A DNA stretch of 56,057 nt from an uncultured bacterium. GTDB lineage: Bacteria > Patescibacteriota > Minisyncoccia > Phycocordibacterales > CAIZLB01. The translations under genes and the position numbers were made by a program. The notes below the pieces were generated by a model. That model was not told where the DNA came from. It ran no database searches and saw only the letters and a list, made by a program, of their open reading frames with translations. The DNA is taken from assembly GCA_903821355.1 (NCBI GenBank), contig CAIJKW010000049.1, positions 1 to 56,057 on the forward strand. Reading direction: 5' to 3'. Positions 44,381 to 55,174 of the stretch are shown here, in pieces. Position 1 is the first letter of the stretch, and every line of letters begins with the position of its first letter.

Positions 44381-44820
44381 TATTTTATTATATAATCTTT
44401 TAGTAAAATTTGCTCTATTTCTTGACCAATGATTTTAAAATCATTCCTTATTGTTTCTTTTTTAGCTAAAAAAACAAATTGTGGGGTGGGGGTTTTAAGA
44501 ATACCGCCGTTTTTTTCAACATTTGTTAATTCTTTTAAAAAAGACTCTTTCATTCTTCTTTTGACTCTATTTCTGTCTACCGCCTTAATAAAAACCTTTT
44601 TTGAAGCAATGAAGGTGCAGAAGAGTTCTAAACCTTTGTTTTTATCTGTTTTTTCTTGTTTTTTGTGTTCTGGTGTTGTTTTTCCCGTGTTTTTGTGTTT
44701 TTTGTCATCAAAAACAACTGTTTCGTAATGTGTTTTTAAAAGAAAAGAGCCTGAGTTATAGGCCCTACCTTTTTTCATTATTAAAGCGATTTGTGAGGGA
44801 GAAAGGCTTTTTATTGTCAT
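44380..44820 (-). CDS. rnpA: Ribonuclease P protein component with insertion
   Basis: SKKVFIKAVDRNRVKRRMKE (RNR motif); lies between rpmH and yidC. Confidence 0.88.
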   Translation of the reverse strand: MTIKSLSPSQIALIMKKGRAYNSGSFLLKTHYETVVFDDKKHKNTGKTTPEHKKQEKTDKNKGLELFCTFIASKKVFIKAVDRNRVKRRMKESFLKELTNVEKNGGILKTPTPQFVFLAKKETIRNDFKIIGQEIEQILLKDYIIK

Positions 44821-51896: not shown

Positions 51897-52946
51897 CTAT
51901 GCAAATTTAATTTGTTTTTCCTCCGGATAATCAAGTCCTAAATGGGCATACCCTTGAGGTGTAACAACACGACCTCTTGGTGTTCTTTCTATAAAACCAA
52001 GTTGTATTAGATAGGGTTCACTAAATTCTTCTATTGTTGCTTCATCTTCTGAAAGAGACGCTGCGATGGTGCCCAAACCAACCGGGCCGCCATTATATTT
52101 TTCAACAATAGTACTAAGTATTGATCTATCCATCGCTGTTAAACCTCTTCTGTCTATAGAAAGTAAGGACAAAGCCTCTTCAACAACATCTTTGGTTAAT
52201 TGTTTTTTTAGAACCTGTGCATAATCCCGGCACCTCTTTAATAAGTAGTTTGCTGTACGGGGAGTGGACCTGCTTCTTTTTGAAATTTCAGCCATGGCAC
52301 CTTCGTCAATATTCATGTTTAAAATTTTTGCTGATCTTGAGATTATTTTTTCTATTTCTTTTTCTGTGTAAAATTCTAATCTAAACACTCCACCAGAGAA
52401 TCTTGAACGAAGAGGGGATGATATCATTGCCACACGTGTTGTTGCAGAGATCAGGGTAAAGGGTGGTAAATCTAGTTGAATTGTTCTTGCTGACGGTCCT
52501 TTTCCAATGATAATGTCTATTTGACCAGATTCCATGGCGGGATAAAGGACTTCCTCAACAGTTTTGTTTAAGCGATGTATTTCGTCGATAAAAAGAATAT
52601 CTCCTGGGGAAAGGTTTGTTAGCACTGACGCCAAATCTCCCACACGCTCTATTACAGGCCCAGAGGTGACTTTTATTTGGGAACCAGTCTCTTTGGCAAT
52701 AAGATGGGCCATGGTTGTTTTACCTAAACCTGGGGGACCGTAGAACAAAAGGTGTTCTGGTGGGTGATTTCTCTCTTTTGCGGCTGTCAGCAGTATTTTA
52801 AGGTTGTTTTTGATCTGTTCCTGGCCTATATACTCTTCAAAATTATTTGGTCTAAGTTCTTGGTCAAGAACCTTATCCCCAGATTTTTCTAGGGTTTCAT
52901 CAGAGACAGGTTCATTTATAAGGGTTTTATTAAAATCTTGGGTCAT
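51897..52946 (-). CDS. ruvB: Holliday junction branch-migration ATPase RuvB
   Basis: LRP..F.EYIGQ, GPPGLGKTT, FIDEIHRL, PLRSRF, EPYL, RTPRGR. Confidence 0.98.
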   Translation of the reverse strand: MTQDFNKTLINEPVSDETLEKSGDKVLDQELRPNNFEEYIGQEQIKNNLKILLTAAKERNHPPEHLLFYGPPGLGKTTMAHLIAKETGSQIKVTSGPVIERVGDLASVLTNLSPGDILFIDEIHRLNKTVEEVLYPAMESGQIDIIIGKGPSARTIQLDLPPFTLISATTRVAMISSPLRSRFSGGVFRLEFYTEKEIEKIISRSAKILNMNIDEGAMAEISKRSRSTPRTANYLLKRCRDYAQVLKKQLTKDVVEEALSLLSIDRRGLTAMDRSILSTIVEKYNGGPVGLGTIAASLSEDEATIEEFSEPYLIQLGFIERTPRGRVVTPQGYAHLGLDYPEEKQIKFA

Positions 52947-52995
52947 TGTTGTGTCTATTGTTTATATTTTAACCCTTAATTAAAATAATGCCTGC

Positions 52996-53024
52996 TTGAC
53001 AGAAAAAAGTAAGCATGCTAAGAT
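52996..53024 (+). promoter_or_regulatory. Near-consensus sigma70 promoter facing an ORF-free region
   Basis: TTGACA 52996-53001, 17 bp, TG extension, TAAGAT 53019-53024. Confidence 0.7.
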
Positions 53025-53030
53025 GTTTAA

Positions 53031-53298
53031 GACTTTGAAATGTACTTGCAACAAAGAGTGATGGGGTGTTAAAATAAGACTCTTTGTAATTCGCATACAA
53101 AATAGGAAAGAAAAAGAGGTTTACAAACGGCTCCTTAAATCTCTAAGCGATACAACCTTCGCGGGTCTATCGGTTTTTCTTAAAGGACGTACTGGTGCGG
53201 GCTTTATGCCACGTTCCTGGTACTATCCTTAAAGAACTATCGGGCTTTAGGTCTTAGGACTTAAAGCATCGCTTAGAGATTTAAAGTGCTGTTTTTTT
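53031..53298 (+). ncRNA. Structured non-coding RNA, 6S-like candidate
   Basis: 17-bp perfect closing stem 53135-53151/53268-53284, internal bubble, G-U-rich inner rod, 3' T tract, own promoter. Confidence 0.6.
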
Positions 53299-53458
53299 AT
53301 GTCAATTTTTTAAATTTAGTTATTTTTCAAAACAACCAAATTACTTTCTTTAAAATTGATAAAGTAACAATACCTTTCTGCCCAACTTAAGTCAACGAAC
53401 ATATACACAGTTTTGTTTTTCAATAAGTGTTTAATCAAAGTGTCAAATACTTCCGATT

Positions 53459-55174
53459 TTAAATTATACTAGGCTCTTCAAACATTTCATCTTTTGCTAG
53501 GTCCACAACACGCTCCAACTCTTCAAAAGAAGTTACCCCTTTCAAAACCTTTACAACACCATCTTGTCTCAAATCTAAAAATCCTTGTTTTTTGGCTACA
53601 GCCTTTATTTCTCTTTCACTTGGGTTTTCTCTAACGATTCTTTCGATTGAGGCATCTGTTAATATTAGCTCATGAATACCTGTTCTGTCGTAATAACCAG
53701 TGTTATTACATTTGATACAACCAACCGCGGTATATATTTCTGTTGGTTTCTGTAAAAAATCTTTTCCTTCTTCAAAATCTTTAATTGATTCTAAAACATC
53801 ATTAACTAAATCAACCCTTTCTGTTGGTATTGGAATCTTCTTTTTGCACGATTCACACAGAACTCTAACTAAACGTTGTGCAATAGCAACGTGAATTGCA
53901 GATGTTAGAGTTTTTGGATCAGCGCCAAGGTCTATTAATCTAGTAAATGTTCCAGCGGCATTGTTTGTGTGGAGTGTAGAAAAAACCAAGTGACCAGTTA
54001 GAGCTGCGTTAATCGCAGTTATTGCTGTTTCGGCATCTCTAATTTCTCCAACCATTATAATGTCTGGGTCTTGTCTCATTGCAGACTTAAGGCCAGCTTC
54101 AAAAGTATAACCCTTAGATTCTTCAACTTGAGTCTGAACGATTCCTGGAAGGTGGTATTCAACAGGGTCTTCTATCGTAATAATTTTATATTCTGGATTA
54201 GAAACTTCTCTAAGGAACGCATAAAGGGTTGTTGTTTTACCAGATCCTGTTGGTCCTGTTGTTAAAATTAAACCGTTTGGTCTTGCTGTTTCCTTTCTTA
54301 TTGCCTCAAGAAAGCGTTTTGACATACCAAGTTTTTCCATCGTAACCATTATAGATTCCGGGTTTAATATACGCATTACAACAGATTCGCCATAAGACCC
54401 CGGTATTGTTGAGGTTCTTATTTCAATGTCGGTGTTTTTAATTTTAACTGTAAACCTACCATCTTGTGAGTTTTCTTTAATATTAAGTTTTAATCCAGAA
54501 AGTAATTTTATTCTAGAAAGAGTTAATTCATAAGTTTCTTTATCAAATTCTGAGATGGTAGTGAGAACTCCGTCGATTCTATATCTAAGTCTTGCGTTAA
54601 ACTCTCCAACTTCCATGTGTATATCAGACGATTTTGTGGAAAGAGCCCCCGCCATCATAATTGAAAGCATTTTTGAAACACGGTGTGTTTTCTTCATCTC
54701 AAGAGCTTCTTTGATCCAACCTGCTATATCCTCAATCTTTTCAGCTCTTTGAACAAGAGACTCAATCTCTTCGTTTGATATATCAAGTGACCCTGCTTCT
54801 GTTTCTGATGCAAAAGAAATATCCTTGTATCTCTCCCAAGCTTTGTTTAAACTATGCATTGAGGCTATAAAAACTATTGATTTATAACCCTTTCTCTCTA
54901 GGTTATCCAAAACATCTTTTGTCTCAACACTTTCAGGTGAGTGAACCGCTACAGAGATCTTTGTTCCAACGATATCAAAGACAGCAACTAGCCCTGCTCT
55001 TGCTGTTTCCTCATCTATTAGCTTAAGACCGTCAGAATTAATGGAAACTTTTGTTAGATCTATATATGTTATATTGTATTTATCAGCAAGTATTTGCATG
55101 GAAGCCTCTTCTTCATCAAGAAGCAACTGCTTCATCCTAGAGTTTTGTTTGTCTTCATCAAAATGAATTGTCAT
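53459..55174 (-). CDS. pilB: Type IV pilus assembly ATPase PilB/GspE
   Basis: SDIH, RYRIDG, QDGRF, GPTGSGKTTT, EDPVEY, RQDPDIIMVGEIRD, STLHTN, two CxxC pairs. Confidence 0.95.
   Translation of the reverse strand: MTIHFDEDKQNSRMKQLLLDEEEASMQILADKYNITYIDLTKVSINSDGLKLIDEETARAGLVAVFDIVGTKISVAVHSPESVETKDVLDNLERKGYKSIVFIASMHSLNKAWERYKDISFASETEAGSLDISNEEIESLVQRAEKIEDIAGWIKEALEMKKTHRVSKMLSIMMAGALSTKSSDIHMEVGEFNARLRYRIDGVLTTISEFDKETYELTLSRIKLLSGLKLNIKENSQDGRFTVKIKNTDIEIRTSTIPGSYGESVVMRILNPESIMVTMEKLGMSKRFLEAIRKETARPNGLILTTGPTGSGKTTTLYAFLREVSNPEYKIITIEDPVEYHLPGIVQTQVEESKGYTFEAGLKSAMRQDPDIIMVGEIRDAETAITAINAALTGHLVFSTLHTNNAAGTFTRLIDLGADPKTLTSAIHVAIAQRLVRVLCESCKKKIPIPTERVDLVNDVLESIKDFEEGKDFLQKPTEIYTAVGCIKCNNTGYYDRTGIHELILTDASIERIVRENPSEREIKAVAKKQGFLDLRQDGVVKVLKGVTSFEELERVVDLAKDEMFEEPSII

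Follow-up and report, generated by a model that had tools for sequence, protein, structure and literature searches.

Contig CAIJKW010000049.1 of GenBank assembly GCA_903821355.1 is a 56,057-nt stretch of DNA from an uncultured bacterium of the Patescibacteriota, and the whole of it was analysed (the window in what follows). Three of its genes, pilB, ruvB and ruvC, share one strand, with RuvC (recognised by Pfam) encoded just beyond ruvB, and the gap between pilB and ruvB is filled on the other strand by a gene for a structured RNA of ~170 nt, which is the subject here. We show that this predicted RNA gene lies on the strand opposite pilB and ruvB and has its own near-consensus sigma-70-type promoter of the extended -10 kind. 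A first-pass annotation of this DNA, made from the letters alone, had described the region as lacking any substantial open reading frame, and we find that none longer than 43 amino acids overlaps it. The features of the locus, and one further gene of the window, are as follows.

51897-52946, minus strand: ruvB, divergent from the RNA gene (Pfam RuvB_N, AAA_lid_4 and RuvB_C)
52996-53024, plus strand: main promoter of the RNA gene, with TTGACA (52996-53001), a 17-nt spacer, TG (53016-17) and the -10 box TAAGAT (53019-53024); 10 of 12 consensus matches
53031-53124, plus strand: 5′ leader of ~94 nt, not conserved in sequence, which includes a 9-bp hairpin at 53051-53087 (ACAAAGAGT at 53051-59 paired with ACTCTTTGT at 53079-87)
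53046-53075, plus strand: second, weaker promoter-like site within the leader, TTGCAA, an 18-nt spacer and TAAAAT, with TG; 9 of 12 matches
53125-53295, plus strand: conserved RNA core of ~170 nt with a four-armed fold, P1 to P4, delimited by BLAST conservation and by full-length covariance-model matches
53126-53151, plus strand: 5′ arm of the closing stem P1 (helix 1 of the alignment)
53156-53165, plus strand: P2, a small hairpin on the 5′ side of the junction
53170-53243, plus strand: P3, a long arm with internal loops (helices 3-5)
53244-53267, plus strand: P4, a 10-bp hairpin (helix 6)
53268-53293, plus strand: 3′ arm of P1, pairing with 53126-53151
53292-53298, plus strand: run of seven T, read from the sequence right after P1
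53367-53395, minus strand: promoter-like site TTGACT, a 17-nt spacer and TATTGT, directed through the RNA gene toward ruvB; 9 of 12 matches
53459-55174, minus strand: pilB, type IV pilus / T2SSE ATPase, convergent with the RNA gene (Pfam T2SSE and MshEN)
44401-44643, minus strand: rnpA, the RNase P protein

The first-pass annotation had also named a near-consensus promoter, a 5′ hairpin, a long closing stem with inner helices, a 10-bp hairpin and a T tract, and each of these was recovered in our analysis at the place it gave. From the promoter boxes, transcription would start near 53031. Of 47 related loci, 39 have the same arrangement (TTGACA, 17 nt, TGnTAnnnT) at most 200 nt upstream of the RNA. 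The second promoter-like site has a counterpart at the same place (TTGCCA or TTGTCA with TAAAAT) in three relatives of the genus (L012, L010 and L009), and none was seen outside the genus. BLAST conservation begins at 53125 and leaves the leader and its hairpin outside the conserved stretch; of the RNA as it was first delimited, the core therefore stands and the leader with its hairpin is not conserved in sequence. Over the 39 loci the leader, measured from the -35 box, is ~0 to 130 nt long, so that the distance from promoter to P1 varies, and in two genomes (G008 and G023) the closing stem follows the promoter directly. The primary transcript of these two would start at P1, and therefore the ~94-nt leader in our window appears dispensable; it is probably trimmed or tolerated. 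The hairpin within it could be a processing or stabilising signal. Separately, many leaders of the family (e.g. L020, L023 and L027) contain hairpins of unrelated sequence between promoter and closing stem.

At the 3′ end, the P1 stem and the T run together form what reads as an intrinsic terminator in the organism's own family, and distant relatives have a separate GC hairpin and T run 5-40 nt 3′ of the RNA fold. Four contigs of relatives from RNA-type libraries, themselves 151-254 nt long, cover the RNA at a depth of 2-3, at which strand, ends and level are not readable.

The plus strand of the region folds with an energy of -93 kcal/mol (z = -6.7), a value that none of 200 shuffles matched, and the minus strand folds to -78 kcal/mol, 15 kcal/mol worse. 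An alignment of 23 sequences made with MAFFT and RNAalifold yielded 59 consensus pairs, 26 of them with compensatory changes, and from it we built a covariance model (R1). The first-pass annotation had suggested such a model from relatives as a check on the RNA, and its outcome is favourable: when 47 sequences of the order were aligned to the model, 93.2% of cells were paired and two-sided changes were present at 49 of the 59 pairs. None of 500 shuffles reached the observed values, and slid controls paired in 38-52% of cells. The 47-sequence alignment was fitted to the model's structure and so favours it; the independent MAFFT/RNAalifold result gives the same helices. G-U pairs working on the plus strand only had been noted from the window itself, and in the 47 sequences G-U cells outnumber A-C cells by 298 to 48; therefore the plus strand is the functional RNA strand.

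The two arms of the closing stem are detected as a 27-nt self-match in the organism's own genome. P1 extends over 26 bp in the window and consists of 24-26 pairs with one 2x2 internal loop; in the alignment, 20 of its 24 pairs have two-sided changes and 96.9% of cells are paired. The inner 17 bp of P1 are nearly invariant in sequence, with compensation for those changes that do occur, and are more conserved than the neighbouring proteins. P2 is short (3-6 bp) with variable loops, and all 3 of its pairs show two-sided changes. In P3, an AGGA/UCCU helix is invariant in 45-47 of the 47 sequences and is accompanied by a CUGG...CUGG segment that is likewise conserved and includes a bulged U and a U-G pair, the latter retained in 44 of 47; the tip of this arm varies in sequence and length and is almost absent in 5 of 47. 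P4 has two-sided changes at 7 of 8 pairs with 95.2% of cells paired, and abuts P3 and P1 with zero unpaired bases between. The predicted fold is a four-way junction on a closing stem of ~26 bp, from which P2, P3 and P4 emerge, and three of the four helix joints at the junction are free of unpaired bases. It takes the place of the asymmetric bubble drawn in the first-pass annotation, as the flanking hairpins P2 and P4 both covary. A class-wide consensus from 65 loci retains the same core.

We then asked how widely the RNA is distributed. The organism's own genome (G000; 978,826 bases in 57 contigs, 98% complete) contains a single copy. BLAST recovered 53125-53300 once per genome in 22 of 24 family relatives (E <= 1e-13, identity 70-99%); another family relative, G010, has a weak match at the same locus, and all six members of the genus carry the RNA. 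Of 121 genomes sampled across the order, 97 matched R1 over its full length, 95 of them at a single locus. The two-copy genomes have a tandem pair (G073, C1:65111-65292 and 65311-65491) or copies on separate contigs (G042, C2:86632-86800 and C9:70801-70961). A further model, R2, run with filters, found the RNA in 50 of 151 genomes of the class. As just a part of the first-look candidates was scored in these genome-wide searches, the order and class counts are lower bounds. When 40 filter-negative class genomes were searched again without filters, over the 1 kb that lies upstream of ruvB, 25 gave full-length matches in the expected orientation (E <= 5e-4 for the 41.5-kb search), and G150 was additionally recovered as a carrier. 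Since 25 of the 40 were recovered once the filters were removed, the RNA is a class-wide feature that the filtered search undercounts. All 3 re-examined genomes of one family (f137) gave no match. In the phylum sample, R2 matched only the own genome and one genome of its order, with no match in ~144 genomes from other classes, and on these searches the RNA appears restricted to one class of Patescibacteria, ultra-small bacteria of the Paceibacteria type.

No Rfam 15 family matches the RNA at the gathering score, and at E <= 10 only chance matches to rod-like microRNAs were seen. A full-text literature search found no description of the RNA in these bacteria, nor one of their 6S RNA or signal recognition particle (SRP). 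By this comparison the family is not catalogued in Rfam 15, in keeping with the other reading that the first-pass annotation had offered, an undescribed RNA.

A 27-bp inverted repeat might also belong to a repeat acting at the DNA level, such as a miniature inverted-repeat transposable element (MITE), a palindromic element or a recombination site, and a MITE was the contrary case that the first-pass annotation had raised. The chance of this is next to negligible: the sequence is present in one copy at a fixed orthologous position, and shows compensatory changes, strand-specific G-U pairs and its own promoter and terminator. A MITE or dispersed palindrome was therefore rejected on copy number, position and covariation.

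The position of the RNA gene is as constant as its fold is distinctive. RuvB is the upstream divergent neighbour at 23 of 23 loci of the family, 24 of 28 of the order and 27 of 29 of the class (74 of 80 in total), and PilB is the downstream convergent neighbour at 23 of 23, 26 of 28 and 28 of 29 (77 of 80); these counts are from BLASTP against the window's proteins, and several of the misses are contig ends. In a few loci (G095, G192, G117 and G063) the RNA is retained beside only one of the two genes. Spacing is often tight, with the ruvB start 24-50 nt from the RNA 5′ end, inside the RNA promoter, in many genomes and the pilB stop 0-40 nt from the RNA 3′ end, also in many. In genomes so tightly packed, a separate ruvB promoter could not fit outside the RNA gene. 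Transcription of ruvB would therefore run antisense through the RNA gene, in the face of its strong promoter, and yield fully complementary transcripts. In three genomes of other classes, pilB does not adjoin ruvB (3 of 3 loci) and the RNA was not found.

This arrangement raises the possibility, which we regard as appreciable though doubtful, that the RNA acts in cis, as an antisense regulator or an insulator between pilB and ruvB-ruvC, and uncouples or lowers ruvB-ruvC expression. The mechanism, to which we give the same doubtful standing, would be strong convergent transcription and pairing of the RNA with the spacer of pilB-ruvB read-through transcripts, followed by an RNase III cut. The near-universal synteny, the separation of pilB from ruvB outside the class, the many genomes in which ruvB lacks room for an outside promoter and the minus-strand promoter-like site that runs through the RNA gene in the own family are all as such a regulator would have them. 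However, antisense control needs neither a conserved four-way junction nor invariant loop nucleotides nor G-U pairs on one strand, co-transcription of pilB and ruvB is only presumed, and the four genomes with just one of the two genes still retain the RNA. Additionally, boxes similar to the minus-strand site are present in family members, but just 6 of the 47 loci reach 10 of 12 matches or better on the minus strand; we therefore rejected a general minus-strand promoter behind the RNA and consider the site a family-level feature. A palindrome, GTCAATTGAC, recurs together with this site just downstream of the RNA gene in the own family.

The same neighbourhood bears on whether the RNA senses a ligand or cleaves itself, that is, whether it is a riboswitch-like aptamer setting read-through antisense to pilB, or a ribozyme. 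Its multi-stem junction with invariant nucleotides has the look of such an element, distant relatives have a separate terminator hairpin after the fold, and with pilB convergent any read-through would indeed be antisense to that gene. We think this very unlikely, as no ligand could be expected to switch a stem as stable as the 24-27 bp closing stem, which in the own family doubles as the terminator stem, Rfam contains no matching riboswitch or ribozyme, and no gene in the same orientation follows, the next downstream gene being the convergent pilB in 77 of 80 loci.

The first-pass annotation had put forward a divergent 6S RNA and proposed a search with Rfam 6S models at relaxed thresholds. In that search, the Rfam 6S-type models (RF00013, 6S-Flavo, Bacteroidales-1 and the like) gave no match to 52900-53500 at E <= 10 with lax filters. 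The 6S hallmarks of the Rfam consensus, GGGAG in the 5′ strand and CACCCACCU in the 3′ strand of the terminal stem, are present neither in 53125-53295 nor in the family consensus. The large open central bubble of 6S RNA is also missing, with the pairs of P2 (3 of 3) and P4 (7 of 8) covarying and P3, P4 and P1 abutting. Elsewhere in the own genome, RF00013 has a weak match of 130 nt and 18.6 bits (C29:5258-5387; locus L106:1541-1670). This unannotated RNA has a TATAAT promoter to itself, folds with a z-score of -6.9 and includes a closing stem; set against the Rfam consensus, it carries the hallmarks GGGAG and GCACCCACCUAG. Its homologues, with compensated changes, are found in all 6 genomes of the genus and in 2 of the 4 from a second genus, where they score 31 bits to RF00013.

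Across the class sample of 151 genomes, RF00013 matched five, of which only G153 (52.1 bits) exceeded the gathering score, and these matches sit in unrelated gene contexts. A 6S model built only from these five Rfam-supported sequences, which come from sister orders (R3), detected, in 69 of the 121 order genomes, one RNA ~120-150 nt long. It matched the C29 locus with 23.3 bits (E = 0.0023) and the homologues of the genus with up to 35.2 bits, and it found nothing at E <= 1 across the whole 56-kb window. Both the 6S-type RNA and the RNA beside ruvB are held by 58 of the 121 genomes, always at different places. An apparent mutual exclusion between genomes with an Rfam 6S match and genomes with the ruvB-side RNA was an artefact of the filters, as the unfiltered search found the latter in 4 of the 5; G153 has the ruvB-side RNA at 45.7 bits in addition to its 6S. 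Because the two RNAs co-occur at separate loci, the 6S of this lineage is a different gene, and by these matches the real 6S is short, sub-threshold and encoded at another locus. The divergent-6S proposal was thus dropped as a statement of membership, with no model match, hallmarks absent, the junction closed and a separate 6S-type RNA in the genome.

Some bacteria contain two 6S RNAs, and the ruvB-side RNA might in principle be a second, non-canonical decoy for RNA polymerase in which P1 mimics downstream DNA, the junction corresponds to the open bubble and P4 is the release hairpin. A length of ~170 nt, paired ends, a strong promoter and a hairpin on the 3′ side of the junction would all suit this role. 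We nevertheless consider it improbable given the lack of matches to the Rfam 6S models and to the class-tuned model R3 at the thresholds above, the absent motifs, the closed junction with P2 and P4 covarying, a closing stem that is a regular 17-bp duplex, and the co-occurrence of a canonical-type 6S.

Other known RNAs were considered in the same way. The SRP RNA models RF00169 and RF01854 match nothing, and RF00169 was found in 0 of 41 genomes. Neither the Ffh M domain (PF02978) nor the SRP54-type GTPase domain (PF00448) was found in the own genome, nor was FtsY, and no reading frame of the genome contains the SRP-GTPase motif. The SRP GTPase domain had no real match in 41 relatives and 1 weak match in 121 phylum genomes. 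SRP RNA was rejected, since the ruvB-side RNA has no domain IV motif with a GNAR loop, its P3 tip is variable, and Ffh and FtsY were not found. As an observation in its own right, the SRP system was not detected in the own genome or, apart from that 1 weak match, in the sampled phylum. Our literature search turned up no paper stating that SRP is absent from these bacteria; in PMC10768705, the SRP genes named carry APY09_ locus tags and are apparently genes of the host XH001.

The presence of rnpA in the window was the reason to consider RNase P RNA. RF00010 found none in the own assembly, and none was found at 7 candidate sites chosen by a motif scan and then compared with Rfam. A separate RNase P RNA of 172-556 nt (most 310-560) was detected by RF00010 in 37 of 40 genomes (the own genome and 39 relatives), often near contig ends, and that of the own genome is most likely unassembled. 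The ruvB-side RNA was rejected as RNase P RNA as relatives have a normal one elsewhere; a stretch after GGAC that resembles RNase P conserved region I covaries with a local partner within the ruvB-side RNA. Transfer-messenger RNA (tmRNA) is located elsewhere in the own genome, and a Y RNA was rejected as the genome encodes no TROVE/Ro protein domain.

The reading that we favour, tentatively, is that the ruvB-side RNA is a stable protein-binding RNA of ~170 nt that acts in trans after being trimmed to its closing stem. In this scheme processing would remove the variable leader, together with a 3′ trailer in some lineages, as far as P1, and the mature RNA would accumulate as a stable particle. 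It would then bind a conserved, putative protein through the invariant inner part of P1 and the AGGA/UCCU-CUGG region of P3, and once bound may act as a scaffold or a decoy. A role in protein binding is suggested because the invariant nucleotides sit in helices and internal loops where pairing alone would permit change. A trans target recognised by long pairing was rejected: extended complementarity to other sites of the genome is absent at 14 nt, and the 3 matches of 13 nt are about the number expected by chance on a rough estimate. Strong antisense transcription from the RNA promoter would meet any read-through from pilB to ruvB and may damp it, probably as a side effect rather than the main function.

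Several observations weigh against a trans-acting, protein-binding RNA. Transcript support is limited to the four short, low-depth contigs from relatives, the E-values of the models are rough and the genome-wide counts are lower bounds, and the partner protein remains putative. An RNA that acts in trans need not keep its place, but the gene was found next to ruvB and pilB at nearly all loci examined in the class, and its near-fixed position therefore points to a function tied to the locus. Moreover, an almost perfect 17-bp duplex of fixed sequence would be unusual as a protein-binding site, and this duplex might rather be there to be cut by RNase III or to pair with a partner.

The four-way fold together with the fixed neighbourhood of ruvB, and often ruvC, also led us to consider that the RNA, made in large amounts, mimics a Holliday junction and titrates or guides the Ruv branch-migration and resolution machinery, in analogy to 6S RNA, which mimics an open promoter to titrate RNA polymerase. 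We regard this as a long shot. Ruv has been lost in some lineages, with 12 of 151 class genomes lacking the RuvB_N domain, four of them in one family (f146). The filtered search, which misses many copies, found the RNA in only 1 of these 12 genomes, on a short contig, and in 49 of the 139 with RuvB.

The RNA is kept under strong constraint. The genomes of Patescibacteria are tiny with little non-coding DNA, yet a whole class keeps a 170-nt RNA gene under one of its strongest promoters, and constraint of such degree is typical of core cellular RNAs. 6S, RNase P, tmRNA and SRP are accounted for elsewhere or absent, and the presence of this RNA thus points to a ribonucleoprotein or control circuit not yet recognised. 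Such a circuit may be linked with the uptake of DNA (pilB) and with recombination (ruvB and ruvC), on which these uncultivated bacteria depend. What is new here is that a canonical-type 6S is located elsewhere and co-occurs with this RNA, that identities as SRP, RNase P or Y RNA are excluded, and that the label of a divergent 6S is removed.

One of the closest known systems is 6S RNA (SsrS, RF00013 and lineage-specific 6S models), which shares the similar length, the long stem pairing the ends, the strong promoter, the single copy and the hairpin on the 3′ side. The ruvB-side RNA differs in lacking GGGAG/CACCCACCU and in having a closed junction in place of an open bubble and a regular closing duplex. 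SRP RNA (4.5S/scRNA; RF00169 and RF01854) is likewise a small stable RNA with paired ends, and no SRP RNA was detected in these genomes; however, the ruvB-side RNA is without the domain IV motif, and the partners Ffh and FtsY were not found. With CopA/CopT, RNA I/RNA II and other cis-antisense RNAs it shares a position opposite a possible target, a structured fold and a strong, constitutive-looking promoter, and its apical loops could start kissing contacts. In contrast to these, it is conserved in sequence and architecture far beyond what antisense pairing needs, and lies in an intercistronic or 5′ spacer rather than over a start codon, opposite a target transcript that is presumed. Finally, the raiA motif, OLE and ROOL/GOLLD are orphan conserved bacterial RNAs of unknown function. 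The ruvB-side RNA has a different fold from these, without a match in Rfam 15, and is much smaller than OLE, ROOL and GOLLD, but like all of them it was found by comparative genomics and combines a complex fold and strong covariation with restriction to one lineage.

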